64,000 bases of DNA, taken from assembly GCA_963664875.1 (NCBI GenBank), contig OY761611.1, positions 2,048,001 to 2,112,000 of the forward strand, written 5' to 3'. Position numbers and translations under genes: made by a program. This DNA comes from Candidatus Kapaibacterium sp. (GTDB lineage: Bacteria; Bacteroidota; Ignavibacteria; Kapaibacteriales; UBA2268). Below are positions 28,025 through 49,854 of the stretch, one piece after another (position 1 is the first letter of the stretch; each line of letters opens with the position of its first letter). The notes beneath the pieces were generated by a model. That model was not told the origin of the DNA. It saw only the letters and a list, made by a program, of their open reading frames with translations, and did no database searches.

Positions 28025-28172
28025 TATTATTTATAGTAAATCAGACTCCTTTCTACACAAAATAGTCAGTGTGCATTTTGAAGTGTTCGTACATTTCAGC
28101 TAGTATTTGTTTGCAGTCCATACTGTTGCACTTCGATAGTTTGCTCGGCATAAACTAAGCTCAGCACATCGC

Positions 28173-28314
28173 TCAACGAGGTGAATTTTCTTTTAAGCGT
28201 GGCAGACTATAGTTTTCTCTATATTTATAATCTGCAAAAGTTAGTCCCGGTTACTGAGCCTGTCGAAGTACCAAGGTAGTCAGTTAGTTCGTATTGTTTG
28301 TGACCGATTTGGCG
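28173..28314 (-). repeat. Terminal degenerate Rhs-core repeat with REP insertion and MITE-end remnant
   Basis: Core repeat interrupted by CCGGTTACTGAGCCTGTCGAAGTA (28247-28270); CTCAACGAGGTGAATTTTC matches one end of the 184-bp element. Confidence 0.8.
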
Positions 28315-28396
28315 AAAAAAAATATTTAGTCAGCTAAGCTAAGTATAATAAATGGACTTGTATTCTTTATTATACTGTTTAGAACAGCAAAGAAAC

Positions 28397-29200
28397 TTAG
28401 ATATAATCATCATTATTCTTTACTGGAATCAAATCATCCCATTTAACTTGTTTGTCTTCAAGTAAGATATTTTTAAGTTCATTGTTGAAATAGATCTTAT
28501 TATATGCAAGCCAACCTTTTCCATATATCTCTGCTGATCTTACTATTGGAAGAGTGACTTTTTCTTTAAATGGCGGAATAAAATCATCTATAATTGGATT
28601 AAATTTCTTTGTCCCACAAACTTCACATGTTTTTTCTAAATATTTCTCAATGTCAATTGGGAATTTTAATCTGGGAATTTCAAGCTGTACTATCTCTTCA
28701 AAAGGAATATCCTTTTTATGATTAATAACTTCTCTGTTACCTATACCAAGTGGTTCTAATCTTTTTGTGTAATATTCTTTCTCAACAAAAATTGCATCAT
28801 ATTCCCAAGTTGTCGTAAAAAACTTATTTTTTTTCAGCGAAGGTATTTTTGATAATCTAAAGGGATTGATTTGGTATTTCAGAGCTTTACAACTTGGACA
28901 TAGTTTATTATCATAAACTATTGTTTTATAAATAATATTATTATCAGGCATAGGAAACCCATACTCTCTAAAACCGCCATATTCTACATATCGAGCCTCT
29001 AATACTTCTGGTTTTGTAAATTGTGCAATAATTCTGATTCGTGATTTTTCTCCTGTCATTAAAATATCTTCGTGTTCTTTAAAAAACATCAAAGGAACTT
29101 TTATGAAAGAATTATTTTTAAATTTAATACCATGAGACTGAATGAATATAATTTTTTTTTCTATTTCATGACGAGTATATACTATAACTACTTTTTCCAT
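28397..29200 (-). CDS. Putative immunity protein, cassette 7 (two CxxC motifs)
   Basis: Starts immediately after the toxin stop (29202); CPSC and CEVC. Confidence 0.7.
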   Translation of the reverse strand: MEKVVIVYTRHEIEKKIIFIQSHGIKFKNNSFIKVPLMFFKEHEDILMTGEKSRIRIIAQFTKPEVLEARYVEYGGFREYGFPMPDNNIIYKTIVYDNKLCPSCKALKYQINPFRLSKIPSLKKNKFFTTTWEYDAIFVEKEYYTKRLEPLGIGNREVINHKKDIPFEEIVQLEIPRLKFPIDIEKYLEKTCEVCGTKKFNPIIDDFIPPFKEKVTLPIVRSAEIYGKGWLAYNKIYFNNELKNILLEDKQVKWDDLIPVKNNDDYI

Positions 29201-29201
29201 T

Positions 29202-30275
29202 TTACTTTCCAATTTTATCAAGATATTCTAATAATATATTTTTTACTTCTGGCAATTCTTTATGAATTTCTTCTACGGCCTCCCTAAGATCTTCTGCAGA
29301 GAAATTTTTAGTATGCGGTAGATCTTTTGCATTCTTTCTACCTATCCAATTTACCCATACTTTGTTAAATTCCTTGTGTTCATCCCCAGTTAAAACAATG
29401 CAAGGTATATCATCTGCAGAAACTTCAAGAAATTCAGCAAATCTTTTTTCAATTAAATGATGTACTTCCAAACCTTTTATACCACTTTTATCAGCCGCCT
29501 CTCTAAGAACTTTATAAGTCCCTATCCCAAAATCATCAGCATATCGAAAAACTTTCAATCCTGTGCCAGCACCTTCTCTAATAATTAGTCTAGCAGTTTG
29601 TCGTACTGTACCTTTTACACAAGTTAATGGAAGAGCTGCTAATTGAACATTTCCTGATATTTCTGATATATCTGTAGCAATTTCTCTTTGAGCTGGTGGA
29701 AGATAAGAATATTCTGTTATTTCTCCTAAGAGTCCCCAAGTTGCAAACTCACTAAACGTAACACTGATGGAAGCATAAAAACCGTTTACGAAAGAAAGTC
29801 TTCTTTCAAATTCAGCCATTTTTTCATCATATACTCTTTTCTTTTCGGCTTGTTCTGCTTCATATTCAGCTCTTTCTTCATCTGTTCGATGAGCTTCTAC
29901 AACTGCTTTTCCTTTAGTGACACTCCACTTCTTCCCCCCTATATTTACAAATTTACTCCCTTCATGATCAATTTCATCTCCTGTTTCATAATCGGCAGGG
30001 TTATAAGTATCCGCAGGGTTGGTTTCCGCAACTAACCCCAAGGGATCCATAAAAAATATTGGATTATTATTAAATGTCGAATAAGCAGACTGATTAGAGA
30101 AAAAAGCACCCATTGGATCCAAATTCCACCTCCTCGCAGTCCGCGAGTCATACATCCAAAACATTGCATGATAGCTATTCCCCAATCCCGCTATCTCATC
30201 ATCACGCTCCATGCCATTGAATCCGAAGCGAGCTAATGTGCTGCCATCCTGATAGTAGTTATCCGGCACTAACAT
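29202..30275 (-). CDS. Orphan Rhs C-terminal toxin, cassette 7, HNH/AHH-like nuclease tip
   Basis: FGFNGMERDDE core end, DPLGL cleavage-type motif, tip EVHHLIEKRF...CIVLTGDEHKEF. Confidence 0.8.
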   Translation of the reverse strand: MLVPDNYYQDGSTLARFGFNGMERDDEIAGLGNSYHAMFWMYDSRTARRWNLDPMGAFFSNQSAYSTFNNNPIFFMDPLGLVAETNPADTYNPADYETGDEIDHEGSKFVNIGGKKWSVTKGKAVVEAHRTDEERAEYEAEQAEKKRVYDEKMAEFERRLSFVNGFYASISVTFSEFATWGLLGEITEYSYLPPAQREIATDISEISGNVQLAALPLTCVKGTVRQTARLIIREGAGTGLKVFRYADDFGIGTYKVLREAADKSGIKGLEVHHLIEKRFAEFLEVSADDIPCIVLTGDEHKEFNKVWVNWIGRKNAKDLPHTKNFSAEDLREAVEEIHKELPEVKNILLEYLDKIGK

Positions 30276-30430
30276 CCCAAAGGGACGCGTCCCAAGGGAT
30301 AGTAATCATTTTTTGAAAGAACTTTTAAGCGTGGCAGACTATAGTTTTCTCTATATTTATAATCTGCAAAAGTTAGACGCACATTGCCAAGGTGGTCAGT
30401 TAGCTCGTATTGTTTGTGACCTATTTGGCG
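30170..30430 (-). repeat. Rhs-core repeat with 14-nt palindromic insertion
   Basis: GGGACGCGTCCC hairpin within the YYPFG codons near 30281-30299. Confidence 0.9.
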
Positions 30431-30468
30431 AAAAACATCTCAAAACCTGCTCCATTCCCCTCAAGAGG

Positions 30469-31660
30469 CAGGGATGATTTGTTCTTTGTAAATATCATAT
30501 AATATAGTAAATTATAGAAAGCCAAACACAAACTTTTCTAATCTGGGGGGATTTATGGAAAAGCAAACGTTAGTAAATTATCTTGATAAGTTGACAGATA
30601 AGCGTCGCAGGGAAGGCACACGCCATAATCAATCATTTGTATTATTGCTGGTTTTGATGGCGACTATGAGCGGACAATATGGCTATCGTGGCATAGAAAG
30701 ATTTATAAAGAAGAATGCCGAAGACATACTGAAATATTTAAAGCCTCATAAAGATAGATTACCAACTTACGCAACAATTTTTAGAGTGGTAAATAATATA
30801 GATTTTGATGAATTTGCACAGATTTTTAAAGAGTGGTCAAAAGTTTATGCAAAGCCTCAAAGCGGTGAAATAATCAGTATAGATGGCAAAGCTTTGAAAG
30901 GCACATTAGTAGAATACAATTCGAAATACCAGAACTTTATAAGCATTGTTTCTGCACATTCTCAATCAAGTAAAATGTCACTAAGTATAAGCAAATATGA
31001 GAATAAAAAATCAAGCGAGATAAGCGTAGTTGAAGAAATGATTAGAGATTTAGAACTGACTGGCGTAGTCTTTACAATGGATGCTTTACACTGTCAAAAA
31101 AACTCTAAGAACAATTGTTAGTACTAACAACAACTATATTATTTGCGTAAAAAAGAATCAAGGTCGTTTGTACAAAGAACTGGAGAGTTTGAGTTCGAGC
31201 TGGTCAACAAAGATCGATTATTATAAAACCGAAGAAACTAATAGAGACAGACGAGAAACTCGTAAAGTATATGTATATTCATTAAACGATAAAATTAAGA
31301 ACGAGTGGTCCGGATCACAGCAATTAGTAAAGGTACAAAGGATTAGAAAAACAAAACAAATGCAGGAAGTTCATGTACATTATTATTTGAGCAGTCAAGA
31401 AAAACCAGCAAAGTATTATATGCAGAGCATACGAGGACATTGGGGCATTGAAAACCAGCTACATTGGGTAAAGGATGTGGTAATGAAAGAAGATGCTTGG
31501 AAAGTGAGAAATACACAAGCAGCTTCAGTCATGAGTATAATAAAGTCAATTTGTATCAATATTTTTAGGTCAAAGAAGCGTATTGATTGTACCAACTTTT
31601 TCTATGAGACTGCCGACAATGTAGAACTATTGGTGACTTTGTTAGAATGAATCAACCCTG
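30469..31660 (+). mobile_element. ISAs1-family insertion sequence, copy 1 (1192 bp)
   Basis: TIRs CAGGGATGATT / AATCAACCCTG; flanks CCTCAAGAGG and CCTCTTGAGG. Confidence 0.93.
30555..31650 (+). CDS. ISAs1 transposase split at an A7 run (ORFs 30555-31121 and 31081-31650)
   Basis: IDGKAL, SEI, TMDALHCQK, VKKNQ, RGHWGIENQLHWVKDV..KED. Confidence 0.9.
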
Positions 31661-31842
31661 CCTCTTGAGGGGTGCGTGAGCGAAGCGAGGGCGGGGTGGA
31701 TAAAACCTAATATAAATCACTTCCCCCGAAAAAAATATCGCTAAATTTATCTATGTAAATTACATTTTCCTATATTGAAACAGTTGTGCTTCGAGAGATT
31801 CCACCCCGGCACTACGTGCCACCCCTCAACGAGGGGAATTTT

Positions 31843-31937
31843 CTTTTATGCGTGGCAGACTATAGTTTTCTCTATATTTATAATCTGCAAAAGTTAGACG
31901 CACATTGCCAAGGTGGTCAGTAAGCTCGTATTGCTTC
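31843..31937 (-). repeat. Truncated tip-less Rhs-core repeat
   Basis: KQYELTDHLGNVRLTFADYKYRENYSLPRIK then directly the 184-bp element. Confidence 0.88.
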
Positions 31938-32166
31938 AACTATATGTGCAGAGCTTTTTTACCCTGCACATATTTTCCATCGAAATTTGGAAATAAATTT
32001 GCAAAGAGCTTTGAGGCTCAAATACAACATTCATAATTTTAAATCTTATTTGCCAATCTAAAGCACAATGACTATGTCTATGTCTATGTCCACTTCAAAT
32101 AAATAATACTATCAAATAGCATATACTTTTTTAGTATTTTTTTACATATTTCTAACTAACAGGACA

Positions 32167-32634
32167 TCACTTTATATGGAGTGAATCATCACCTATTGGT
32201 AGCTCTATAAATATATAGATACTATCTTGAACCGTTTCAAAGTAGAAATTACTGTTTTCAGGAAAAAACTGTTGTAATTTGATTTTGTCAGACTCTGGAC
32301 TTACATAGTTAAATGCCCCTCCGTAATTAAAGTGTAGCTCCTCAATAGATGAGTTAATACTGAAAGAAATATTCGTATCCAATAAACATCTTTCGTCAAG
32401 ATAACCTGGAATATCATCATTTAGATTTACTACACCTTTATTTACAATGATTTCCGCTATACTAAAATATTTTTTCTTCTTTTTTACAACAAAGAAGTAG
32501 TCGTAACTAATCACACCAGGATTTACTTTCTGAGACAATTTCAATTGAATACCTCGAAAAATATATCTTTTCTCGGAGTTCATACTCGAACATGCCAGTA
32601 ACATTGCAAATATAAAAAGATACAATCTATACAT
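32167..32634 (-). CDS. Putative immunity lipoprotein, cassette 6
   Basis: Lipobox LLAC; AAGGAG upstream; 18 nt after the toxin stop. Confidence 0.7.
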   Translation of the reverse strand: MYRLYLFIFAMLLACSSMNSEKRYIFRGIQLKLSQKVNPGVISYDYFFVVKKKKKYFSIAEIIVNKGVVNLNDDIPGYLDERCLLDTNISFSINSSIEELHFNYGGAFNYVSPESDKIKLQQFFPENSNFYFETVQDSIYIFIELPIGDDSLHIK

Positions 32635-32652
32635 TATAATCTCCTTAGTCTT

Positions 32653-33648
32653 CTAATATTCGTCAATTTCTCCGTTTTCAAAATTTGATGGTCGTGTACC
32701 TACTTCATCTAATGTTGATTGACCTTCAATAGTTTGTGCATTCCGATAATAATTATCAAAATCTTCCCCTTCATAATTATAAAATATTATTGGTTTTCCA
32801 ATTCTAATTTCCATAGGATATTTAGTATTAGACCAATGATCATCCCAAGTAGTGCGATTAAAAATAGTTTTATACTTACCAATTCCGATGTGTCCTAACG
32901 AAACTGCAATATCATTCAAATACCAATGTGTGTTTCCAGAAGTATTATCTGAAGTGATTCCAGCAATATTGCTATTCATATTAGAACGTGGATTACCCCA
33001 TGGATGAATCAAACCAAATGCATGTCCCATTTCATGCTGAATTATTGCAATAATTCCATCAACTCCAACTCCACTTACATCAGAAGGTTCTGAAACAAAA
33101 GTCTGATTGAAAGTATGAATACCTGCCATGGTTATAGGTAGTTCTTCTTCTTGATCATTGTCAGGATCTCTTACCACTGGAACTAGTTCAAAATTATCTC
33201 TACTCAAATAATTAAGTCGATTAGTAATTCCTTTAGGTTTTGTTGCTTGTTCTTCTTCAGAGACTTCCTCAATCATTACATCAAATTGTACATCATACTC
33301 TATTATTTCATCACCTGTATCAACAACATATTTAACACTTTGATCCCTAATATTCTCAGCAGCAGATTTTATATATCCCTTTTCAACATCTCCAAGATTT
33401 TTTGGGATAGTAAAAACAGCAGCCATAACTATAACTTTACTTTCATGATTTATATAAATCTCATAATCATCTCCACCTGGATCTTTATATATCACTGGAT
33501 TGTTTCCAAATGAATTATAAGGACTCTTAGTTGGATACTTTTTCTTTGCTGGATCCAAACTAAACCACCTCGCGATTCTTGCATCATAATTCCTGTTTGC
33601 AGTATTGTATGTATTCCCAACACCTGCAATCTCATCATCACGTTCCAT
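32653..33648 (-). CDS. Orphan Rhs C-terminal toxin, cassette 6, zincin metallopeptidase tip
   Basis: YDARIARWFSLDP, DPGGD, HEMGHAFGLIH (HExxHxxGxxH) followed by a Met-turn-like NM. Confidence 0.82.
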   Translation of the reverse strand: MERDDEIAGVGNTYNTANRNYDARIARWFSLDPAKKKYPTKSPYNSFGNNPVIYKDPGGDDYEIYINHESKVIVMAAVFTIPKNLGDVEKGYIKSAAENIRDQSVKYVVDTGDEIIEYDVQFDVMIEEVSEEEQATKPKGITNRLNYLSRDNFELVPVVRDPDNDQEEELPITMAGIHTFNQTFVSEPSDVSGVGVDGIIAIIQHEMGHAFGLIHPWGNPRSNMNSNIAGITSDNTSGNTHWYLNDIAVSLGHIGIGKYKTIFNRTTWDDHWSNTKYPMEIRIGKPIIFYNYEGEDFDNYYRNAQTIEGQSTLDEVGTRPSNFENGEIDEY

Positions 33649-33885
33649 GCCATTACACTTCGACTCGCTTTGCTCGCTCAGTGACCTTTGAAGCGTGCGA
33701 ATGTGCTGCCATCCTGATAGTAGTTTTCCGGCACTAACATACCAAAGGGATAGTAGTCACTTTTTGAAAGAACTTTTAAGCGTGGCAGACTATAGTTTTC
33801 TCTATATTTATAATCTGCAAAAGTTAGACGCACATTGCCAAGGTGGTCAGTTAATTCGTATTGTTTATGACCGATTTGGCGTAAT
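33615..33885 (-). repeat. Rhs-core repeat with 35-nt REP-like insertion introducing a stop
   Basis: CACTTCGACTCGCTTTGCTCGCTCAGTGACC near 33656-33686 replaces the GF codons, giving ARFKGH-stop. Confidence 0.9.
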
Positions 33886-33979
33886 GTATTATGTACTCTT
33901 TTCACCTTCGGCTAAGCTTTTTTGAAAATTATCTTTCAAAGAGCTATAGCTGCTTAATTTAATTATTTACTAAATCTAA

Positions 33980-34396
33980 TTACCAATGATACCCAGGGGC
34001 ATGCGCCTTTATCATACCATACTTTATAGTCATAATTTCGATCTTAGTAGATGAAACATATACTAAATATCCTACTCTTTGGTGATTTACATAAAAATAT
34101 CTTGTAATAGGATCATATGTTTTATAGAACTTCTTTAGATTCATACTATCTCCAGCTGCAAACTGAAATTCTCTGCTGAGCTTTTCTTCTAACTCTGGCG
34201 TATAAGTAAGTGTATCATTGATGTAGATCAAATCGAAATCTAGATCATTATGAGTTTCTTGTATAATCCATCGTCCGTTCAACAATGTGTCTATATTAAC
34301 ATCATGATAATTCATAACTCGGTAGAAACAAATTCCGAATAAAAGTAATATAACATAAACAACCATTTTAACTTTACTTACTACTGGCATCTTCAT
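33980..34396 (-). CDS. Putative immunity protein, cassette 5 (N-terminal membrane anchor)
   Basis: Overlaps the toxin 3' end; hydrophobic N-terminal helix. Confidence 0.65.
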   Translation of the reverse strand: MKMPVVSKVKMVVYVILLLFGICFYRVMNYHDVNIDTLLNGRWIIQETHNDLDFDLIYINDTLTYTPELEEKLSREFQFAAGDSMNLKKFYKTYDPITRYFYVNHQRVGYLVYVSSTKIEIMTIKYGMIKAHAPGYHW

Positions 34397-35501
34397 TCTT
34401 TTTTTCTCCAGCTTGAAATTGAGGATTTTTTGCTTCACCATTTTTTGTAACCATCATCGGATATGGTACATAATTACCTAAGTAAGAGCTAACTTTTTCT
34501 AAAAATGAGCTATAAGAGCCTGTTTCAGGTCTAGATACCATATAAGTTGGAATATGAATACTAAACCCAGGCAACCCTAAACTCCACCACATAAAAGCAG
34601 GATCTTTGTCATAAAAATTGCTTAATGTAGAAGGATATGATGAAGCAGGCTGACCATATATCAATACATTATTAAAGTTTTCAAGCTTAGAAATTCTAGT
34701 TGTGAATCTCTCGTCAAAATCCATTTTTAAACAACTTGTATTGCAACCGTAAAACAATGCTCTATTATTTTCGGAATTCTTATCCCAGTTAAAATTGATA
34801 CTTCCCCATCCTTCCATGCTCATGTGCCAGTCATCAACTGGAAACTTAGAAGTCTCAAGAGCCCCCATTGGTCCATCTTTTTCTCCACTGTGAGACCAAA
34901 TCCCAAATTCTACTGTATTACCATACTTCTCTTTATAAAAATGCACGTTTATATTAACTTTGGGAATTAATTCTGCCAAATCTTCATACTCAATCAAAAC
35001 CACTTTATCTCTTTTGGGATCAAAATATTTGCTTTTTTCTATATCGCTTTTTCTAGTTATAGCAGCAGATTTGACCATTTCGTTCCCTCCTAAAGGTTCA
35101 TTCACAACATATGCCAAAATATATAAGCTATCACCATTTTTGTCTATACCATTTATAGGTGTATTGGCAGCAAATGCAAAAGGAGATAAGTTATGAAATT
35201 TATTCTTGAATCGATCCAATTTTGGAAACCTCGCTATCCGACTATCATACTGCCTTGCCCCGAAATTCAAGCTATTCCCAACACCTGCTATCTCATCGTC
35301 TCGTTCCATGCCATTGAATCCGAAACGAGCCAATGTGCTGCCATCCTGATAGTAGTTATCCGGCACTAACATCCCAAAGGGATAATAATCATTTCTTGAA
35401 AGAACTTTCAAACGTGGCAGACTATAGTTTTCTCTATATTTATAATCTGCAAAAGTTAAACGCACATTGCCAAGGTGGTCAGTTAGCTCGTATTGCTTCA
35501 A
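34374..35501 (-). CDS. Orphan Rhs C-terminal toxin, cassette 5, possible His-Cys peptidase-like tip
   Basis: Uninterrupted core repeat, FGARQYDSRI, DKNGD; tip with WSHSG..DGP and FYGCNT. Confidence 0.78.
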   Translation of the reverse strand: MKQYELTDHLGNVRLTFADYKYRENYSLPRLKVLSRNDYYPFGMLVPDNYYQDGSTLARFGFNGMERDDEIAGVGNSLNFGARQYDSRIARFPKLDRFKNKFHNLSPFAFAANTPINGIDKNGDSLYILAYVVNEPLGGNEMVKSAAITRKSDIEKSKYFDPKRDKVVLIEYEDLAELIPKVNINVHFYKEKYGNTVEFGIWSHSGEKDGPMGALETSKFPVDDWHMSMEGWGSINFNWDKNSENNRALFYGCNTSCLKMDFDERFTTRISKLENFNNVLIYGQPASSYPSTLSNFYDKDPAFMWWSLGLPGFSIHIPTYMVSRPETGSYSSFLEKVSSYLGNYVPYPMMVTKNGEAKNPQFQAGEKKNEDASSK

Positions 35502-35626
35502 CTATATGTGTAGAGCTATTTTTACCCTACACATATTTCATTCTGTTTTTGAAAATAAATTTTAAAAGAACTTGATTTGTTTATTAGATTGGTTATACTA
35601 AATATTATTAAATTATTCTAAACAAA

Positions 35627-36082
35627 TTAACTTTGAAAGTCATTACCAGTATACCTTTCACCTTTCAGATAAGTTCGTAATCTTTCTATTACATGAATAC
35701 TATCATATACTTCACAGCGTTCTAACCCCATACACTTTTCTCTTGTCGATTCACTAATATCCCCAGTATTAGCATTATATAATAAAAACCTACCTGGTGT
35801 TACTGTATCTTCAATAAATTGATCAGGAAGTATCTGTAATGATTCTCTAATTAATAATTTTCCTACTCTTGGCCATTCCCCTTTAGTAATTATATCTCTA
35901 TAAATAGCGATTATGAACAAAACTTCGCTTTTAGCAAGTACTGAAATGTTTTCAATTGGTGCTGTACTATGATATTCGAAAAATGCATAACATGCATTCC
36001 CAAGGAATTGTGTATAAAAAAAGTAATTATCTACCCTCAACTCATATATAGCACCAATTGTCTGTTTCTGCCTTTTCATCAA
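35627..36082 (-). CDS. Putative immunity protein, cassette 4 (Imm26-like)
   Basis: IGAIYELRV..YFFYTQFLG...GEWPRVG...GLERCEV pattern; AGGAG upstream. Confidence 0.7.
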   Translation of the reverse strand: MMKRQKQTIGAIYELRVDNYFFYTQFLGNACYAFFEYHSTAPIENISVLAKSEVLFIIAIYRDIITKGEWPRVGKLLIRESLQILPDQFIEDTVTPGRFLLYNANTGDISESTREKCMGLERCEVYDSIHVIERLRTYLKGERYTGNDFQS

Positions 36083-36088
36083 ATTCTC

Positions 36089-37234
36089 CTATTTTTTTGT
36101 TTTGGTAGTTTTATTATATGCATCAATATATGCATCTTTTTTAGGATTTTTTGGACTAATACCATTTATAGCATTCCCTGAAGTTCCACCTGTTGACTGT
36201 GCACCACCATGCTTGTCAATTAAAATTTGCTCACGACCTCGAGCTTCCATATATTTATCAAACGAAGCATCAAGCTGTGCTTTTCCCCAGCCATCTTCAG
36301 TACGTTTATGATGAGTAGCATCTCGTCTAGCAACATTCTCCAAAGGAGTGCCTGTACCAGATGTCCTCCCAGAATAAACTTGACCTGTTTTAGAATTTGT
36401 TTTAGTATAAGTTTGATATGTCTTTTTTTTGTTAGTTTTGCTCTTTTCAGTTTTATTACTTACTTTTTCAGAAGTAGTACTTTCAACATTAGATTTTTTA
36501 CCTTTTTGAGATTGTTTTGCAACATCCTTTGTTTTATCGACTATTGCATCCTTGGTAGTTTCTTTCGTTGTTTCTTTAGCAGTCGTAGTGGTGACTTTTT
36601 TGGAAGTGGCTTCAACTGTTTTTTCTCCTACTTCTTCCAGTACTTCTTTACCAGTTTTTTCTAATGCTTCTTTACCAACATGTTCCACAACTTCTACTAC
36701 AACATGTTCTGTTACTTCCGCAGTAGCTCTATAAGTCAAACCTAAACATGTCCCACCAGGTGTAGCTAAACCAGCTAAATCCCAACCCAATGCACCTACA
36801 GAAATAGGGTTAACTTTTCCTGTAGTAAAATAATCGTATCCAATTTCACCAATATCATATATAATAAAACCAATATCTAGAACAAAATCTACTACAATGT
36901 CACCATCCAGCTCCTTTTTGTTAATAGGATTAAGCATTACATAACTATAACCAGAGTATTCAGGATATATTACAGTAGCTCCGTCTATTGATAACCATCT
37001 TGCGAGCCTTGGATCGTAGTTCCTTTCGGGATAATTTAAATTATTCCCCACACCTGCGATTTCATCATCACGCTCCATACCATTGAATCCGAAGCGAGCT
37101 AATGTGCTGCCATCCTGATAGTAGTTATCCGGCACTAACATCCCAAAGGGGTAGTAATCACTTTTTGAAAGAACTTTTATACGTGGCAGACTATAGTTTT
37201 CTCTATATTTATAATCTGCAAAAGTTAAACGCAC
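36089..37234 (-). CDS. Orphan Rhs C-terminal toxin, cassette 4, GIY-YIG/URI-like nuclease tip
   Basis: Uninterrupted core, RNYDPRLARW; tip YQTYTK...VYSGRTSG...RR...H...RGREQ...GNAINGIS. Confidence 0.8.
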   Translation of the reverse strand: MRLTFADYKYRENYSLPRIKVLSKSDYYPFGMLVPDNYYQDGSTLARFGFNGMERDDEIAGVGNNLNYPERNYDPRLARWLSIDGATVIYPEYSGYSYVMLNPINKKELDGDIVVDFVLDIGFIIYDIGEIGYDYFTTGKVNPISVGALGWDLAGLATPGGTCLGLTYRATAEVTEHVVVEVVEHVGKEALEKTGKEVLEEVGEKTVEATSKKVTTTTAKETTKETTKDAIVDKTKDVAKQSQKGKKSNVESTTSEKVSNKTEKSKTNKKKTYQTYTKTNSKTGQVYSGRTSGTGTPLENVARRDATHHKRTEDGWGKAQLDASFDKYMEARGREQILIDKHGGAQSTGGTSGNAINGISPKNPKKDAYIDAYNKTTKTKK

Positions 37235-37320
37235 ATTGCCAAGGTGGTCAGTTAGCTCGTATTGTTTGTGACCGATTTGGCGAAAAACATCTCAAAACCT
37301 GCTCCATTCCCCTCTTGAGG

Positions 37321-38512
37321 CAGGGTTGATTCATTCTAACAAAGTCACCAATAGTTCTACATTGTCGGCAGTCTCATAGAAAAAGTTGGTACAATCAATA
37401 CGCTTCTTTGACCTAAAAATATTGATACAAATTGACTTTATTATACTCATGACTGAAGCTGCTTGTGTATTTCTCACTTTCCAAGCATCTTCTTTCATTA
37501 CCACATCCTTTACCCAATGTAGCTGGTTTTCAATGCCCCAATGTCCTCGTATGCTCTGCATATAATACTTTGCTGGTTTTTCTTGACTGCTCAAATAATA
37601 ATGTACATGAACTTCCTGCATTTGTTTTGTTTTTCTAATCCTTTGTACCTTTACTAATTGCTGTGATCCGGACCACTCGTTCTTAATTTTATCGTTTAAT
37701 GAATATACATATACTTTACGAGTTTCTCGTCTGTCTCTATTAGTTTCTTCGGTTTTATAATAATCGATCTTTGTTGACCAGCTCGAACTCAAACTCTCCA
37801 GTTCTTTGTACAAACGACCTTGATTCTTTTTTACGCAAATAATATAGTTGTTGTTAGTACTAACAATTGTTCTTAGAGTTTTTTTGACAGTGTAAAGCAT
37901 CCATTGTAAAGACTACGCCAGTCAGTTCTAAATCTCTAATCATTTCTTCAACTACGCTTATCTCGCTTGATTTTTTATTCTCATATTTGCTTATACTTAG
38001 TGACATTTTACTTGATTGAGAATGTGCAGAAACAATGCTTATAAAGTTCTGGTATTTCGAATTGTATTCTACTAATGTGCCTTTCAAAGCTTTGCCATCT
38101 ATACTGATTATTTCACCGCTTTGAGGCTTTGCATAAACTTTTGACCACTCTTTAAAAATCTGTGCAAATTCATCAAAATCTATATTATTTACCACTCTAA
38201 AAATTGTTGCGTAAGTTGGTAATCTATCTTTATGAGGCTTTAAATATTTCAGTATGTCTTCGGCATTCTTCTTTATAAATCTTTCTATGCCACGATAGCC
38301 ATATTGTCCGCTCATAGTCGCCATCAAAACCAGCAATAATACAAATGATTGATTATGGCGTGTGCCTTCCCTGCGACGCTTATCTGTCAACTTATCAAGA
38401 TAATTTACTAACGTTTGCTTTTCCATAAATCCCCCCAGATTAGAAAAGTTTGTGTTTGGCTTTCTATAATTTACTATATTATATGATATTTACAAAGAAC
38501 AAATCATCCCTG
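37321..38512 (-). mobile_element. ISAs1-family insertion sequence, copy 2 (1192 bp)
   Basis: Same TIRs; perfect 10-bp direct target duplication CCTCTTGAGG (37311-37320, 38513-38522). Confidence 0.93.
37331..38426 (-). CDS. ISAs1 transposase split at the same A7 run
   Basis: Both ORF translations are identical to copy 1. Confidence 0.9.
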
Positions 38513-38701
38513 CCTCTTGAGGGGTGCGTGAGCGAAGCGAGGGCGGGGTGGATAAAACCTAATATAAATCACTTCCCCCGAAAAAAATATCGCTAAATTT
38601 ATCTATATAAATTACATTTTCCTATATTGAAACAGTTGTGCTTCGAGAGATTCCACCCCGGCACTGCGTGCCACCCCTCAACGAGGGGAATTTTTCTTTT
38701 G

Positions 38702-38930
38702 CTGCCATCCTGATAATAGTTTTCCGGCACTAACATCCCAAAGGGACGCGTCCCAAGGGATAGTAATCATTTTTTGAAAGAACTTTTATACGCGGCAGAC
38801 TATAGTTTTCTCTATATTTATAATCTGCAAAAGTTAGTCGCACATTGCCAAGGTGGTCAGTTAGCTCGTAATGTTTGTGACCGATTTGGTGTAATGCTTG
38901 CCGCCTTGTGCCTTTTGCTTTGGCTACTTG
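38702..38930 (-). repeat. Tip-less Rhs-core repeat with 14-nt insertion
   Basis: QVAKAKG leader, core repeat, GGGACGCGTCCC, ends at QDGS then the 184-bp element. Confidence 0.9.
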
Positions 38931-38980
38931 GGAAATTTTTAAAGAGCTTAGAAACTTTGAATCTTCCTAAATACTTTAGC

Positions 38981-39844
38981 CTATTTCTTGTTTTTCTTTT
39001 TCATTTCTTTCTTTGTTTTTGTCCATAAGTCAGAGCGGTATTGGAGATATTCTGTTGCAGTCATATTTTTTTTCTTTATTAAAGTTTGCTTGAAGTCATC
39101 AAGCCTATTTTCTAAATATAGTTTAGTCCAAAAATGTTTTTGTTTTTCCCAATTTTCACCGGGTTTATCTGCAAAATCAAATAACTTAATCTCTATTATC
39201 TCATGATTATTTATTTCAATTGGTCTTGCTCCATCTATTTTCAATAGCTCTTTACGTGGAATTATAGGATATATCTCATTCCCAAAATACATTACCGGTG
39301 CTGCTCTTAAAACAGCCACAAAAACAGCTTCTTTAAATTTACTCCATTTTAGCGGATTTCGATCATCCATTTCTTCATAATCACTAATACCCAATCTTTC
39401 TTCTTCATTATAGTAATATGAGGTAATCAATGAAACGTTTTTGTTCAAAACATTTCTTAATATATTATGATTGTCAAACAACATCTCATAACTATCAAAA
39501 TATCGGAATGATATGGTTAAACCTATCCTTGTTGAAACCATATCATTTATCAGTCCTAGAGTAATTCCAAAAGAAATAAAAGGTTGTAACTCCTTTTTTC
39601 TATCCTTTTTACATCTCAATGTTATAGAAGTATATCCAGTATCCATTTCAGATTTTGTATAACTTTCTAATGCTTTGGTTTTATCATATTTCATATCTTT
39701 GGGTAAATAAAACTCATGATAACCAAAGGACATTTTTTCAGGTTCAAAACCTGTTAAATTCAATACAGCCTCAAATATTTTTGAGTATTCAGTATGAAAG
39801 TTTTCTACATCTAATCTCAAATAAATCGCACATACATTCATCAT
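38981..39844 (-). CDS. Putative immunity protein, cassette 3
   Basis: Starts right after the toxin stop (39846); soluble; no recognised motif. Confidence 0.65.
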   Translation of the reverse strand: MMNVCAIYLRLDVENFHTEYSKIFEAVLNLTGFEPEKMSFGYHEFYLPKDMKYDKTKALESYTKSEMDTGYTSITLRCKKDRKKELQPFISFGITLGLINDMVSTRIGLTISFRYFDSYEMLFDNHNILRNVLNKNVSLITSYYYNEEERLGISDYEEMDDRNPLKWSKFKEAVFVAVLRAAPVMYFGNEIYPIIPRKELLKIDGARPIEINNHEIIEIKLFDFADKPGENWEKQKHFWTKLYLENRLDDFKQTLIKKKNMTATEYLQYRSDLWTKTKKEMKKKNKK

Positions 39845-39845
39845 G

Positions 39846-40874
39846 TTAAACCTCATCTATACTAACTTGAACTTTGTTATCTAAAGACTTGCCATGAGCA
39901 TCTAATTTTTTTCTTAAATCATTTAATTGCTCAGAAGTGTACTTGCCTTTCGGAACATAGATTTGTAATATTCTCTCACTTGAGCTATTTAACCCTCGTA
40001 ACCCTGATAAAGCAGTCATTTTTTTCTTAAATTGAGAAGGACTAATCTTTGTTGCTGCAGTACTAGTTACATCTACTACATTATCTATTGCAACATAAAT
40101 ATTACCTTGAAATAAGCCATATGTAGGATTGTTTTCCCTTAATTCTACATTTGCATTTTTATATCCTTTATACTTAGTTGCTAAAGCATATTTTTCTAAT
40201 TTTTTTCTATTTTGAATTCCACCTGAAAAAGCTCCTCTAGCAAGTTCTAAATCCGGGTCGCCATATTTCTTGCTCAACTTATTAAAATTATCTTCACCAA
40301 TCAAACTAACAAGTTTTGCTCGGGCTTTTTTGTTTGAAAGTAACTCAATAAATTTATCTGCAGTGAGCTCAGATACAAAACCAAGCATTAATGCACCGCC
40401 GACATCACTTGTTGAATAGGATTCCCCGTCTATAGTTTTCTTCACAAAAGTAGATGCAACATCTGCGGCTGCCTCTGCAAAAGCTTTTGCGTATTTGCCA
40501 CCCGGCACTGAAACAGCACCCCAGCATGCTGCCTTACCTACGTCCCACCAATCAATAGACTCAAAAGCTGCTCCAAATGAATTCACATTATCATCAAATA
40601 GATAATTTAAACCCATCTGCATAATCATTTCAGTACCGGCAGCAACACCCATTTGTGCTATAGTCTTTGCAATTATAGCGGCGATAACTGCTACATTGCC
40701 ATCTGCATCTCTTAGGAATATAGGATTGCTAGATGCAAATAGATAAGGGGAGATACTAGGAAATGTTGCTGAATACGGATCAATATCCCATCTTCTTCCG
40801 ATTCTTGAATCATAACCATGGCTACCGAATAAGTAATGATTCCCAATCCCAGCTATTTCATCCTCTCGCTCCAT
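39846..40874 (-). CDS. Orphan Rhs C-terminal toxin, cassette 3, tip of unknown class
   Basis: YDSRIGRRWDIDP, DADGN, hydrophobic helical linker, basic C-terminal domain. Confidence 0.78.
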   Translation of the reverse strand: MEREDEIAGIGNHYLFGSHGYDSRIGRRWDIDPYSATFPSISPYLFASSNPIFLRDADGNVAVIAAIIAKTIAQMGVAAGTEMIMQMGLNYLFDDNVNSFGAAFESIDWWDVGKAACWGAVSVPGGKYAKAFAEAAADVASTFVKKTIDGESYSTSDVGGALMLGFVSELTADKFIELLSNKKARAKLVSLIGEDNFNKLSKKYGDPDLELARGAFSGGIQNRKKLEKYALATKYKGYKNANVELRENNPTYGLFQGNIYVAIDNVVDVTSTAATKISPSQFKKKMTALSGLRGLNSSSERILQIYVPKGKYTSEQLNDLRKKLDAHGKSLDNKVQVSIDEV

Positions 40875-41120
40875 GCCATTACACTTCGACTCGCTTTGCT
40901 CGCTCAGTGACCTTTGAAACGAGCTAATGAGCTGCCATCCTGATAATAGTTATCCGGCACTAACATACCAAAGGGACGCGTCCCAAGGGATAGTAGTCAC
41001 TTTTTGAAAGAACTTTTAAGCGTGGCAGACTATAGTTTTCTCTATATTTATAATCTGCAAAAGTTAGTCGCACATTGCCAAGGTGGTCAGTTATTTCGTA
41101 TTGTTTGTGACCAATTTGGC
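40840..41120 (-). repeat. Rhs-core repeat carrying both the 14-nt and 35-nt insertions
   Basis: CACTTCGACTCGC...CAGTGACC near 40882-40912 and GGGACGCGTCCC near 40973-40984. Confidence 0.9.
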
Positions 41121-41144
41121 TAAAAACATCTCAAAACCTGCTCC

Positions 41145-41328
41145 ATTCCCCTCTTGAGGGGTGCGTGAGCGAAGCGAGGGCGGGGTGGATAAAACCTAAT
41201 ATAAATCACTTCCCCCGAAAAAAATATCGCTAAATTTATCTATATAAATTACATTTTCCTATATTGAAACAGTTGTGCTTCGAGAGATTCCACCCCGGCA
41301 CTGCGTGCCACCCCTCAACGAGGGGAAT
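41145..41328 (-). mobile_element. 184-bp MITE/REPIN-like element, intact copy
   Basis: Reverse complement of 8525-8708 with few substitutions; defines the empty ISAs1 target. Confidence 0.87.
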
Positions 41329-41338
41329 TTTTCTTTTC

Positions 41339-41552
41339 TGCCATCCTGATAGTAGTTATCCGGCACTAACATCCCAAAGGGGTAGTAATCATTTCTTGAA
41401 AGAACTTTTATACGTGGCAGACTATAGTTTTCTCTATATTTATAATCTGCAAAAGTTAGTCGTACATTGCCAAGGTGGTCAGTTAGCTCGTATTGTTTGT
41501 GACCGATTTGGCGTAATGCGTGCCGCCTTGTGCCTTTTGCTTTGGCTACTTG
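41339..41552 (-). repeat. Tip-less Rhs-core repeat
   Basis: QVAKAKGTRRHALRQIGHKQYEL...YYQDG then the 184-bp element. Confidence 0.9.
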
Positions 41553-41618
41553 GGAAAATAAATTTTTGAAGAACCATGTGTTTATTTGCAAATAATATTA
41601 CTTTTAAATGGATTTTAT

Positions 41619-42410
41619 TTATCTTTTCTTTTTTGCTTCTAATCTCTCGTCCATGATTTGATTGCAATCATGCCCCCATGATTGGAGGGAATCTAATATT
41701 TCCATTTTTGTATACCAATTTGAGGATCCCTTGGGATATTTTTCATTTATCAAATATTTACAAATATCAATCTCATTCCCTTCCATATCTACTGCCCATA
41801 TAATGTCATAATTAGTTTTCGTATTAAAAAGTAAGAATTTTACTACATCTAGTTTACTTCTAAGTAATGCCCACCTTAATGCAGTCCATTTACTCTCACC
41901 AGAAAATTGTTTATTCACCTTCATGTAGTCAACTTTTGCTCCATTGTTTACTAAATATTTTGTTTTTGTCAATGAAACTACAACAGCTCCAAACAAAGGT
42001 GTTGTACATTGAGGATGATTAGAGACAATATTAATTGCAGCCCCATTATCCACTAATACTTTCAATATATCAAAACTACAACTAGGATATGTTGAATAAA
42101 ATAAAGGAGTCATCTTCTTATGATCAAAGACATTAGGATTTGCACCATTGTTTAGTAATGATACACATGAGCTTAAATCATTTCTAAAAGTAGACCAATG
42201 TAATAGTGTAAATCCAAAATTTGGCTCTTGAATATTTAAAAGTTGCCTATATTTATAAACATTGGAAGTATCTCCAGCCTCTAAATCTTTAGCGATACTA
42301 TATACTTCAGTATCTGCAAATATTTCAATATCCCATCCTCTTAATTCTTTGTTGTCAGAGCAACCAATTATTACAATGTATAAAATTACCCAAATATACA
42401 TAGTTTTCAT
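41619..42410 (-). CDS. Ankyrin-repeat lipoprotein, putative immunity protein, cassette 2
   Basis: Lipobox IIGC; TLLHW..LLNNGANPN, TPLF..LVDNGAAIN repeats; TAATG coupling with the toxin. Confidence 0.85.
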   Translation of the reverse strand: MKTMYIWVILYIVIIGCSDNKELRGWDIEIFADTEVYSIAKDLEAGDTSNVYKYRQLLNIQEPNFGFTLLHWSTFRNDLSSCVSLLNNGANPNVFDHKKMTPLFYSTYPSCSFDILKVLVDNGAAINIVSNHPQCTTPLFGAVVVSLTKTKYLVNNGAKVDYMKVNKQFSGESKWTALRWALLRSKLDVVKFLLFNTKTNYDIIWAVDMEGNEIDICKYLINEKYPKGSSNWYTKMEILDSLQSWGHDCNQIMDERLEAKKKR

Positions 42411-43387
42411 TACTTAATTCCCTCTTCATCCATTATCTCTATAACTTTCTCCATTCTATGCTTTAATCCACTCTCGATACCTAAAAATAATAAACCTACT
42501 CGTTTTAAGAATAAAGCTCCCCAAGAAGTAGATGCTTCAAGGTATATTTTGTCCCCTTCTGCACTTTGATTAATTAAACTTTGTGCCACATCAACAAATT
42601 CACCTTCAACAATATAAGCTTTGATATTTGGTTTGGTGATTGCTGATACATTCTCTTTATAAACTTTAGCTAGTGAAGCTGCATTAAAAGTCACAGCATC
42701 AAATCCAGTTGAGTAACTATTTGCTGAAGCTAAAGCACCTCCCAATGAATGACCAACAAATGTTAAATCGACTGATTCTCCCATTTTAGTTTTCATTATT
42801 TGTGAGTTTTTTATTGAACGAACAAATTGATCATCTTTTTTTCCTAATACATTTTTTGCATCTGTTTTGCAATCTTCCCAATCATCAGTTCCTGCTGTAA
42901 CATATGCATATTCGTATACTCTTTTGCCATCTTTTTCTCCAATTTGGCGCCTATAAATAGCAGAATTAAAACCAGTCTTACTATCAGTTAATACTATGTT
43001 TTTATCAATATCATCATAATCATTATAAAGTCGCCAACCATTCAAATCATCTCTTGCTTCTCTTTTACCTTTTTCATCGTGAATATAGTACCCATTTTCA
43101 GTATTATATACATCCGCTGCCATCGCAGCTGCTTCTCGATCAGTGGGCTTATCTCCTAACGGATCTATTATTTTAATTGGATTCAGCAAAAATGTAGAAT
43201 ACCTACTTTGCCCATACATATCCACAGGATCCTGATTCCACCTTCTGGCAGTTCTGTTGTCATACATCCAAAACATTGCATGATAGCTATTCCCAACACC
43301 GGCAATCTCATCTTCCCTTTCCATACCATTGAATCCGAAACGAGCTAATGCGCTGCCATCCTGATAGTAGTTATCCGGCACTAACAT
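42410..43387 (-). CDS. Orphan Rhs C-terminal toxin, cassette 2, alpha/beta-hydrolase lipase tip
   Basis: DPLGD; AGTD oxyanion motif, GHSLGG nucleophile elbow, TFNA, C-terminal His. Confidence 0.87.
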   Translation of the reverse strand: MLVPDNYYQDGSALARFGFNGMEREDEIAGVGNSYHAMFWMYDNRTARRWNQDPVDMYGQSRYSTFLLNPIKIIDPLGDKPTDREAAAMAADVYNTENGYYIHDEKGKREARDDLNGWRLYNDYDDIDKNIVLTDSKTGFNSAIYRRQIGEKDGKRVYEYAYVTAGTDDWEDCKTDAKNVLGKKDDQFVRSIKNSQIMKTKMGESVDLTFVGHSLGGALASANSYSTGFDAVTFNAASLAKVYKENVSAITKPNIKAYIVEGEFVDVAQSLINQSAEGDKIYLEASTSWGALFLKRVGLLFLGIESGLKHRMEKVIEIMDEEGIK

Positions 43388-43542
43388 ACCAAAGGGACGC
43401 GTCCCAAGGGATAATAATCATTTCTTGAAAGAACTTTTAGACTCGGCAGACTATAGTTTTCTCTATATTTATAATCTGCAAAAGTTAGTCGCACATTGCC
43501 AAGGTGGTCAGTTAGTTTGTATTGTTTGTGACCGATTTGGCG
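43290..43542 (-). repeat. Rhs-core repeat with 14-nt insertion
   Basis: GGGACGCGTCCC near 43394-43405. Confidence 0.9.
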
Positions 43543-43596
43543 ACACGAATCATGAATCTCCTCCTCAGAACGTCAACAAAGAAACGTAAATACAAT

Positions 43597-44025
43597 TCAA
43601 ATATCTACATCTTTGTTAACAACATGTTTATGAACAGAGTACAAATCAAATACCAATACTGCCGTATTTATTGTAAATAAAGGTAGATACAATGCAAGCA
43701 ATAGCTTATAGTTATTTGAAACAATGTCAATTCCTAGACATACTTTCCATATAAGTATACTCATGGTTATATATAAGATCACCAATACAGTGCTCTTGCG
43801 TAGAGAAAAACTTTGCTGTTTCCTCAACAAATATCCATATGTTAACATATAAATACTGATAGGCAAAAACAATACGTTGCCTCTACTCTGATTGAAGATT
43901 ATTCCACAGATGAAGCCAGTCAATATTCCCAAAAAAGTTCCTAATACTGGTATAAATATAATATTTAATATAAATTGTTTAAAGATCTTTCTCTTTAGTT
44001 TCTTCATTAGTATTTTTTTCATCAT
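43597..44025 (-). CDS. Putative immunity membrane protein, cassette 1
   Basis: About four TM helices; overlaps the 3' end of the rhs gene. Confidence 0.7.
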   Translation of the reverse strand: MMKKILMKKLKRKIFKQFILNIIFIPVLGTFLGILTGFICGIIFNQSRGNVLFLPISIYMLTYGYLLRKQQSFSLRKSTVLVILYITMSILIWKVCLGIDIVSNNYKLLLALYLPLFTINTAVLVFDLYSVHKHVVNKDVDI

Positions 44026-45631
44026 TCTGGCCTTCAGTATTTTCTTTTATAATAGATACAGTATGTTTTTCAGCTACTGTTTTAGCTGCTTCAAATAATG
44101 TATTTTCAGTTCCTTCAATAACTTTGGAACCTTGAACTGAGTCATCACTATCCTTATTCATATTGTAATGTGAGTTTGGATCAGACTTCCAAGGGCCATC
44201 ACCAAACTTAAAATCAAACCATGTTTCATTGTTGTCATTGTCCCAAAAACCTGTTCTTAATCCATTTCTCTCCATAAAATTTTGTGCATCTTCATCAAGT
44301 TCAGTATAAATTGGTATCGTTTCAATATCAAATTCTTCCATTTTACCGCCTCTTGATTTGTAGAATTGAATATAAAGTTCAATGTAATTGGAATGCGCAT
44401 AGAAGTCTTGCACATTATGAAAATAGTGCCCTAATATGGTAGGTGAAATAAGATTAGAATTAATGGTCTTAAAAGCACTTTTGATTCTTGTATTTATTTC
44501 ATTAAATCGTTTGTCAATTTGATTCTTATTCTGCATGTTATCAAAATGATATTCTGACATTGAACCATAAATATCGATATTCATACTTCCTGATATTATG
44601 TCATAAATCTTAATACCTGAAATACCTAACGAATTAGTCGCTGCACCTGTAATTTTGCCGTGGATTGGAATTTTAAAATCTCCATTAGGATCAATATTAA
44701 TAATAGGATTACACATAAAGACAGAATATCTACTTTGATTATAGCTTTCCACCGGATCCTGATTACACCTTCTACCTATTCTCGAATCATACATCCAAAA
44801 CATCGCATGATAGCTATTCCCAACACCTGCTATTTCATCATCACGTTCCATACCATTGAATCCGAAACGAGCCAATGTGCTGCCATCCTGATAGTAGTTA
44901 TTCGGCACTAACATCCCAAAGGGATAATAATCATTTTTTGAAAGAACTTTTAGACGTGGCAGACTATAGCTATCTCTATATTTATAATCTGCAAAAGTTA
45001 AACGCACATTGCCAAGGTGGTCAGTTAGCTCGTATTGTTTGTGACCGATTTGGCGAATTGAGTGATAAACTTTTGAGTCAGGATCTCCCAGTCCGCTGAT
45101 TTCGCTCCCTTCGTCAGGGAAGGTATTAGGTCTTACCGCAGGGAATTCGCCCAAGTTGTAAGGCTCAACCACTGCCACACGCCCGTCGCCACCCGAACCA
45201 TAGAGATACCAAGCGTCATGTGTAAATTTAATAAAATCAGTTGTGTTGTTATAATCCGTAAAGCTTGCAAGCATCAAATTATTAGCATCATAGAAGTAAA
45301 GCTTAGCATACAAACCAAAATGCTTCATAGCCTTCAGCCAAGTCGGATTATTAATAGGGTCAGGATATTCATCTGCCAATTTGTTATAAAGCGATTGGGA
45401 TTTGACACTATTAAAAATTCGATTGCCGGCAGCATCATAAAAGTTGATAATTGTGAGATTATAAGTCCCAAAAAGATCCGGATTATTATCAAAAGTATTA
45501 TTATCATCAACAGTAAAAGATACAAAAACTGTATCAATTTTCCCATTAACATTCCAGCTAATATTTTTGTCGGAATTTACAGAAGTTAGATTGCCTTCGT
45601 GGTCGTAGGAGTGCAGAACTTGATAAACCGA
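43979..45631 (-). pseudogene. 5'-truncated Rhs/YD-repeat protein with Het-C/Zn-phospholipase-C-like tip (cassette 1)
   Basis: Frame stays open upstream of TTG 45379 to about 45634 (YDHEGNL, YDAAGNR repeats) with no start codon; DPNGD; tip HFDN...HNVQDFYAHSNY. Confidence 0.85.
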
Positions 45632-48990: not shown

Positions 48991-49063
<73 letters not shown>

Positions 49064-49844: not shown

Positions 49845-49854
49845 TTCAAATCTT

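Follow-up and report, generated by a model that had tools for sequence, protein, structure and literature searches.

Enterobacterial rhs loci of E. coli, Salmonella and Serratia carry orphan tips, in which units of partial core, variable tip and immunity gene are arranged in tandem on one strand, and up to 11 orphan toxins are reported for some Salmonella strains (PMC7043789). These arrays follow an intact rhs gene that is linked to a type VI secretion system (T6SS). Long orphan series with strictly linked immunity genes are also described for Snodgrassella alvi, in which a complete Rhs gene stands at the 5′ end, T6SS delivery was shown, the orphans are often intact and transcribed, and immunity sometimes outlives a pseudogenised toxin (PMC5727410). 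We analysed a 64,000-nt stretch of DNA from Candidatus Kapaibacterium sp. (contig OY761611.1, positions 2,048,001 to 2,112,000), hereafter the window, and found a related arrangement at 28172–45637 on the minus strand, occupying ∼17.5 kb. The locus is an orphan Rhs cassette (C-terminal-displacement) array with cognate immunity genes. In contrast to the enterobacterial arrays its head is truncated and no other was found, and neither the complete Rhs gene nor the T6SS delivery of the Snodgrassella arrays was seen here. The array has probably lost its delivery gene and would now be an archive in which the immunity genes are the working part.

The core family of this locus is a divergent Bacteroidota/Chlorobiota type, unlike the enterobacterial one; Rhs repeats in Bacteroidetes/Chlorobi are recorded in PMC3482391. 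With the cassette arrays of Zhang et al., 2012 (PMC3482391) the locus shares the toxin-then-immunity order, the Tox-URI1/Imm26 combination and the Tox-HET-C signature. The median stated there is one active toxin per three cassettes, whereas the ratio at this locus is zero to seven for the window, and seemingly for the contig as well. Orphan immunity arrays, as described for Vibrio cholerae (PMC5361080) and gut Bacteroidales (PMC12247911), keep immunity genes without a usable cognate toxin, presumably for defence. In those arrays the immunity genes stand by themselves or next to remnants of toxins, whereas full-length tips are interleaved here. Interleaved tips are given in PMC3482391 as the mark of a regular toxin locus and not of a polyimmunity locus; since every partner in 28–46 kb is preceded by a tip, the array is not a polyimmunity locus. 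An earlier reading made from the sequence only had called the lineage unusual. The lineage is indeed little studied, and a literature search found no paper combining Kapaibacteri* and Rhs, but the core family and the array type are common in related phyla. The locus extends the orphan-cassette architecture to a barely studied lineage, and nothing here overturns current understanding.

Architecture of the array

A repeat scan and self-BLAST identified the repeat family D4, with 11 copies of 78 nt within 28167–45072. The translations indicate that the repeat is coding and belongs to a minus-strand C-terminal Rhs core, running from RQIGHK through a junction of the DPxG type, a core/tip motif named in PMC7043789. 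The copies are read in the order module A, B, stub C, D, stub E, F, G, H, stub I, J and stub K. Seven of them run into tip open reading frames (ORFs) of 325–466 aa, each with an ORF of 142–291 aa behind it (7/7). The other four (C, E, I and K) are tipless stubs that end at an element resembling a miniature inverted-repeat transposable element (MITE). The array is flanked by aspS and by ppa/hydF. No recombinase for an integron- or shufflon-type system was found in 26–48 kb, where the sole recombination enzyme is a split transposase of an ISAs1-family insertion sequence (IS). The features of the array, in the order of reading, are as follows.

43979–45637, minus strand: module A, a 5′-truncated rhs with YD shell, core, DPNGD and a Het-C/VWA7_N-like tip; 552-aa open frame (TIGR03696 34.9 bits, VWA7_N 32.1 bits)
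43597–44025, minus strand: partner of A, a membrane protein of 142 aa with three hydrophobic segments
42410–43562, minus strand (ORF 42410–43387): module B, core with 14-nt insert and a lipase-like tip (GHSLGG)
41619–42410, minus strand: partner of B, an ankyrin-repeat lipoprotein (Ank_2 E 1.9e-18, lipobox)
41338–41557, minus strand: stub C, a core fragment ending YYQDG and cut by the MITE-like element
41150–41345, no strand assigned: MITE-like element, copy 3 of 4 in the window
39846–41141, minus strand (ORF 39846–40874): module D, core with 14-nt and 35-nt inserts, hydrophobic start and a tip without named family
38981–39856, minus strand: partner of D, soluble, 291 aa, without family
38700–38935, minus strand: stub E, a core fragment with 14-nt insert, cut by the MITE-like element at 38513–38709
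37309–38524, minus strand: ISAs1-family IS copy 2, transposase in two ORFs (NF033564 on both)
36089–37302, minus strand: module F, in-frame core, hydrophobic start, long linker and C-terminal URI/GIY-YIG-like domain (TIGR03696 37.7 bits)
35627–36082, minus strand: partner of F, Imm26 family (PF15428 35.9 bits, cut-off 23.3)
34374–35520, minus strand: module G, in-frame core and a tip with conserved His and Cys (TIGR03696 39.1 bits)
33980–34441, minus strand: partner of G, 153 aa, membrane anchor at the N terminus
32653–33901, minus strand (ORF 32653–33648): module H, core with 35-nt insert and a zincin-like tip (HEMGH)
32167–32634, minus strand: partner of H, a 155-aa lipoprotein
31843–32011, minus strand: stub I, a core fragment cut by the MITE-like element at 31661–31851
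30457–31672, plus strand: ISAs1-family IS copy 1, in opposite orientation to copy 2
29202–30450, minus strand (ORF 29202–30275): module J, core with 14-nt insert and a tip with a 115-aa C-terminal toxin-end domain (HH..E, EH invariant)
28397–29221, minus strand: partner of J, soluble, 274 aa, without family
28172–28319, minus strand: stub K, the last core fragment, in which an internal segment is replaced and part of a MITE-like element remains

NCBIfam TIGR03696 (Rhs_assc_core) matched six of the seven tip ORFs at E ≤ 0.01, with A, F and G passing the 32.5-bit cut-off (34.9, 37.7 and 39.1 bits) and B, H and J scoring below it. The module D ORF gave no TIGR03696 match; its core nonetheless aligns to the other cores at the DNA level and to P0001, a full-length relative of 2729 aa. 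The core/tip junctions read DPNGD, DPLGD, DADGN, ELDGD, DKNGD, DPGGD and DPLGL; four of the seven are strict DPxG and the remaining three retain the D/G frame. The array shows every hallmark of an orphan Rhs cassette locus save a full-length rhs, with tip toxicity and its neutralisation being predictions from the sequence.

Pairwise DNA identity of the core copies in self-BLAST was 78.7–97.3% over 150–380 nt, and 35 of 176 columns vary in an alignment of nine copies. The sequence-only reading was right in counting eleven core repeats, but it overstated their near-identity, and also their homogeneity as an unusual trait, since copies diverge at synonymous sites by up to 0.36. For the seven cores that bear tips, the ratio of nonsynonymous to synonymous differences per site (pN/pS) is 0.09–0.24 at a pS of 0.14–0.36, and core pairs that include a stub give 0.24–0.72. 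As the differences are mostly synonymous, the tip-bearing cores diverged while being translated. The low pN/pS fits an import of cassettes from working rhs genes rather than duplication in place, and the stubs are drifting. As a separate candidate, we considered a promoter inside the most conserved part of the core, or some special DNA element there, and found neither supported. A promoter scan gave 87 sites against 80.9 ± 9.5 in shuffles, and 782 of 20000 shuffles matched or exceeded the invariant run of 28 (third-position run, 6029 of 20000), which is not significant.

Related loci were counted among 77 listed loci, which do not include the source genome. In 42 of them, mostly from Chitinophagaceae and Flavobacteriaceae, an open frame that extends upstream for 1000 aa or more terminates in the homologous stretch. 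At least two core copies are present in 34 and at least four in 10, with a maximum of 6 in ∼20 kb. Tandem orphan cassettes are ordinary for this core family, and the eleven copies in 17.5 kb lie at the high end of the sample. The flanks of the array showed no synteny with the related loci, the matches being confined to the cassettes. Locus L046 shares an 87%-identical AbgT transporter.

Tips, partners and their pairing

The comparison of tip with tip (n = 7) and of partner with partner (n = 7) gave no pair at BLASTP E < 0.1, bearing out the earlier description of seven unrelated tips that are each coupled to a distinct gene (7/7 downstream ORFs). Tip A matched VWA7_N at 32.1 bits (cut-off 27.5) and Het-C weakly in Pfam, and carries HxxxDxxxH and NxxE, which constitute the Tox-HET-C signature in the table of PMC3482391. 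Tip B contains GHSLGG and reaches 21.6 bits with Lipase_3, just under the cut-off of 22. Tip H contains HEMGH, has only sub-threshold zincin matches and has a 28% homologue in L059. The Het-C-like, lipase and zincin labels originally given to these three tips hold at the level of their motifs; the family matches are weak for Het-C, marginally short for Lipase_3 and all sub-threshold for the zincins, and it is VWA7_N that exceeds its cut-off in tip A.

The 105 aa at the C-terminal end of tip F form a domain for which 461 of 555 candidates (147–471 aa) were homologues at E ≤ 0.001. The homologues reside on Rhs, PT-HINT and pre-toxin TG proteins, and no Pfam family was attributable to the domain among the homologues listed. 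An alignment of 34 sequences identified Y15, Y26-x-G28, R43, R71-x-x-E74 and N93 as invariant. The model of tip F, with a predicted local distance difference test score (pLDDT) of 85.4, gave no Foldseek match in the PDB at E ≤ 0.001; the UvrC GIY-YIG domain, I-TevI (probability 0.66) and Slx1 were within the first 20 ranks, the latter two being GIY-YIG enzymes. The Tox-URI1 signature is given in PMC3482391 as Y, YxG, R, [RK]xxE and N, with Imm26, Imm14, Imm44 and Imm51 as partners. Tip F has this signature, and its Imm26 partner is one of those listed for Tox-URI1. The GIY-YIG-like assignment made in the sequence-only reading is supported by these invariants and by the partner, while the fold matches are weak.

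The C-terminal 115-aa domain of tip J was found at the C-terminal ends of 339 representative proteins, with H43, E46 and H70 invariant and no Pfam family in 34 members. Its model (pLDDT 87.8) shows two strands followed by a helix; Foldseek returned no match at E ≤ 0.001, and HNH-bearing PDB entries appeared only at probability ≤ 0.15. The HNH-like label of the sequence-only reading is a tentative one for this tip. Tips F and J represent two widespread toxin-end domains without a Pfam family. Language-model leads were obtained for tip G (DUF4347 and Peptidase_C80) and for tip D (restriction-endonuclease-fold toxins, 0.91, 123–138 shared features), in both cases with feature counts or recognition below the guide values of the tool. 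Searching solved structures with the sequences of tips D, F, G and J gave nothing below E 0.09. Pfam at E ≤ 5 gave no family for these four tips or for the partners of A, D, G, H and J.

Three hydrophobic segments are present in the partner of A, a lipobox in those of B and H, and one anchor in that of G; the partners of D, F and J have none of these. The proposal that partner type tracks tip type agrees with this topology, with membrane, lipoprotein or anchored partners accompanying A, B, G and H and soluble partners accompanying D, F and J.

Two of the seven pairs (B and G) recur jointly elsewhere. Tip B and its ankyrin partner recur in L011 and L019 with the partner homologues directly downstream. 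The tip B homologue of L011 ends a 2733-aa Rhs frame, and further homologues of this tip are present in L035 and L058. The tip G pair recurs in L001, where a 53% tip homologue is directly followed by a partner homologue at 42–47%. This tip homologue, within L001 15293–16424, has a stop inside the YGC motif and the partner homologue is intact. When the tip J domain was modelled in complex with its partner, the score was 0.74, the best of three controls giving 0.00. In the benchmark this score is reached by 116 of 157 solved complexes and by 2 of 215 mismatched pairs, counts that hold roughly here because an author-made alignment was used. The runs agree in at least 90% of contacts, with a partner pLDDT of at least 87, and the modelled interface, formed by toxin residues 47–58 and 87–102, adjoins the invariant H43/E46. 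The model supports binding of the tip J domain to its partner, making this protein without known family a predicted binder. Taken with family matches, B, F, G and J among the seven tip-partner units have family or pairing support, and the cassettes are predicted to be true toxin-immunity units.

The missing head, mobile elements and palindromic inserts

Module A is a 5′-truncated rhs that retains ∼194 aa of YD shell before the point at which the other copies start. Its frame of 552 codons equals residues 2155–2466 of P0001 at 60% identity. Searching the window by tblastn with P0001 and P0002 revealed no full-length rhs and no other shell-encoding DNA, so that the earlier statement that the window lacks a full-length rhs is confirmed, the truncated rhs at 45637–43979 being the only one. 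The searches for a head covered predicted proteins of 967–4776 aa in a clustered collection. No protein of the 3.83-Mb source contig was among the best 120 matches when the remnant was compared with proteins of 967–2760 aa, nor when a part of P0001 was compared with proteins of 1500–4776 aa. A gene sharing the array core would be expected near the top, as the remnant scores ∼386 bits. The best full-length relatives were P0001 (64% identity) and P0002 (52%), both from other contigs; P0001 begins with a signal-peptide-like sequence and has no Pfam match at E ≤ 0.001. Thus, the intact rhs sharing the repeat that the sequence-only reading had proposed to look for was found neither in the window nor among the matches listed from the source contig.

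The 5′ truncation point of module A is abutted by the following repeat.

45632–46569, no strand assigned: 940-bp non-coding repeat, with an inverted copy at 20496–21435

The two copies are 94.7% identical over 941 columns, bracket 24 kb including the whole array and hold GC-rich TGAGC...CGAAGTG hairpin units. The copy at 45632–46569 contains a near-threshold Rfam match to Acido-Lenti-1 at 46128–46172 (36.7 bits, gathering score 37). The idea that the inverted repeats split a full-length rhs by inversion was rejected, as no shell DNA is present beside the twin at 20496–21435 or elsewhere in the window.

The MITE-like element measures ∼190 nt and has hairpin ends. Its copies in the window (8510–8703, 31661–31851, 38513–38709 and 41150–41345) are 97–100% identical over 191–197 nt, with a strongly self-paired fold of −58.8 kcal/mol, and occur only fused to core stubs; a relative in L002 (7625–7765) is 80% identical. 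The two ISAs1 copies of 1216 bp are 99.8% identical and oppositely oriented, and both are located exactly at the junction between a MITE-like element and the next core, at the outer end of the MITE. The transposase consists in both copies of two overlapping ORFs of 188 and 189 aa (30555–31650 and 37331–38426). An ISAs1-type element within an Rhs array resembles the H-repeat of E. coli Rhs elements; if the H-repeat belongs to the ISAs1 family, the parallel to those loci also covers the insertion sequences of this array. The H-repeat is described together with E. coli Rhs elements, which have tips downstream of rhs (PMC3032704).

Core stubs are also present on the plus strand, at 8357–8596, 8732–8926 and 9822–9914, outside the array and absent from the earlier note. 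They mark a second locus.

7259–9914, plus strand: second islet with two immunity-like ORFs, stubs X1–X3 and a membrane ORF, and no tip

Stub X1 carries a copy of the MITE-like element, and the membrane ORF (9127–9762) lies between X2 and X3. The ORF at 7259–7648 shares 92% identity with an ORF that closely precedes a core copy in L059, and that at 7630–8298 is 54% identical to an ORF in L001. With its stubs and no tips, the islet (7.2–9.9 kb) is closer to a polyimmunity locus than the array. A Zeta_toxin/AAA_33-like ORF (9898–10578) overlaps the last stub.

Two small inserts interrupt the cores. The first, of 14 nt and containing GGGACGCGTCCC, lies between DYYP and FGM in B, D, E and J (43394–43405, 40973–40984, 38743–38754 and 30282–30293, respectively) and also occurs in L001 near 7071 and in L002 near 15234. 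The insert length is constant, and the palindromic core has three variants, GGGACGCGTCCC, GGGGCGCGCCCC and GAGGCGCGCCTC, each a perfect 12-nt palindrome that differs from the others by symmetric, compensatory changes only. Across the listed loci, 115 instances of this site are free of interruption; the two interrupted ones both come from Kapaibacterium-like metagenome-assembled genomes. The second is a 35-nt replacement (net +29) with the ends GGTCACTGAGCG...CGAAGTGT, located between ARF and NGMER in D, H and X2 (40882–40906, 33656–33680 and ∼8930). It is also found in L001 (7159), L002 (12460 and 15357), L003 (2229) and L059 (5543 and 10201), with conserved ends and a variable middle (26, 34, 35 or 80 nt); one L002 copy looks nested. 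The layered palindromic elements of the sequence-only reading are real. Only the headless state and the conserved palindromic inserts make this array unusual, the 14-nt insert being its one real oddity.

Each of the two inserts causes a frameshift and stops a short way before the ATG with which the tip ORF starts. Of the tip-bearing cores, B, D, H and J (four of seven) are frameshifted by inserts, which leave ∼45–170 nt of uninterrupted homology before the tip. The inserts may be relics of a hairpin-targeting element, or they may be functional. We consider it distinctly unlikely that they are working components, and not debris, of a headless cassette system that only Kapaibacterium-like bacteria have. 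Were it so, they could uncouple the tip from a dead core and set its own translation, or act as protein-binding or recombination sites, and the array would be an autonomous toxin-antidote or immunity island with no need for an rhs head. Programmed −1 frameshifting at the 14-nt insert is a speculation that stems from the slippery-looking C_CCT_TTG, but the affected orphans lack an upstream start codon.

Possible origin and present role of the array

We favour, as the probable history, a C-terminal-displacement array that lost its delivery gene. Each cassette would have been brought in on the terminal part of a working rhs of another strain, displacing the earlier tip downstream; such successive displacement would account for the predominance of synonymous differences among the cores. 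As no full-length rhs with this core was found in the window or among the best matches, the tips could be neither packed into a YD shell nor exported. What still works would be the seven immunity proteins, which may guard against the same toxins delivered by relatives that are still armed. The intact tips would form a reservoir to be reused only after recombination with an incoming rhs gene. Immunity appears to outlast the toxin, given the stop in the L001 tip G next to an intact partner and the tipless second islet. Several points weigh against this history. A frameshifted or IS-split rhs, or one on another replicon or outside 967–4776 aa, would escape the search for a head. The L004 copy starts at the same residue as module A with different upstream DNA, and this shared boundary with unlike surroundings implies that a head may never have stood at this locus; module A may be a long-form cassette and not what an in-place deletion of a larger gene left behind. 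Under relaxed selection some of the seven tips would be expected to be broken, yet all of them are open. The immunity genes might also be silent if they lack promoters of their own, and the promoter scan found no enrichment. If the proposed loss is correct, the array is a natural case of cassettes and immunity genes that persist after the delivery gene is gone. It bears on the question of what maintains orphan toxin modules, be it as a silent arsenal, an immunity bank or selfish addiction.

The sequence-only reading had combined an immunity array, which is plausible as a prediction, with a silent effector-switching library, in which tips would recombine onto a main rhs elsewhere in the genome and change the deployed toxin. 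The latter half is weakened by the lack of an acceptor rhs with this core among the matches and by the frameshifts in B, D, H and J, and we now regard it as unlikely. Its mechanism is established for Salmonella (PMC3967940; also PMC7043789 and PMC5727410), the cores share 78–97% DNA identity over 150–380 nt, and seven tips and seven partners are intact. However, neither search placed a 967–4776-aa protein of the source contig among the best 120 matches, the inserts shift the frame close to the tip, and stubs, MITE-like element and IS copies interrupt the array. About equally improbable are self-standing addiction modules resembling toxin–antitoxin (TA) systems, in which a tip would be made from an internal ATG (MLVPDNYY or MERDDEIAG) and restrained by its partner, stabilising the island or regulating growth. 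An in-frame ATG is present within the last 35–55 core codons of every tip ORF, the inserts in B, D, H and J terminate the upstream frame just before it, and all seven tips are intact. Similar internal starts in the core just upstream of the junction are described for the Rhs type II TA modules of Salmonella, where internal promoters and toxic products of internal origin are reported for the main as well as the orphan Rhs (PMC7043789), and transcribed orphans are known elsewhere (PMC5727410). In Salmonella the internal promoters were mapped, whereas no promoter enrichment was seen here, and the invariant core run was not significant. In addition, tips A, B, G and H look envelope-acting with exported partners, which an unexported cytoplasmic toxin would presumably not need.

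That the locus is simply decaying, a dead rhs with neither tips nor partners under selection, is in our view very unlikely. The truncated head, four stubs, two IS copies, four MITE-like copies and frameshifting inserts would all suit it, as would the pseudogene that tip G has already become in the relative L001. Yet all 14 tip and partner ORFs are open, the tip-bearing cores keep a low pN/pS, and the 99.8% identity of the IS copies makes at least that damage recent. The chance that the array is a repeat-driven assembly artefact is slight in the extreme. The repeats are many and the source record is possibly a metagenome-assembled genome, but the repeats besides the IS are at most ∼400 nt, diverge by 3–21% and each lie between unique tips and partners. 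The contig is 3.83 Mb long, and similar arrays are present in independent assemblies.

Other features of the window lie on both sides of the array. At 23864–25963 on the minus strand, a protein with a Porphyromonas-type peptidyl-arginine deiminase domain carries a C-terminal sorting domain of the type IX secretion system (T9SS), indicating that the organism has this system. A defence island adjoins tRNA-Phe at 48991–59271, with HsdM, HsdS and HsdR interleaved with Abi_2 and a Peptidase_M78/DUF4411 pair. A SAM-I/IV riboswitch (61.7 bits) is located at 62420–62511 on the plus strand, upstream of the ORF at 62509–63144.

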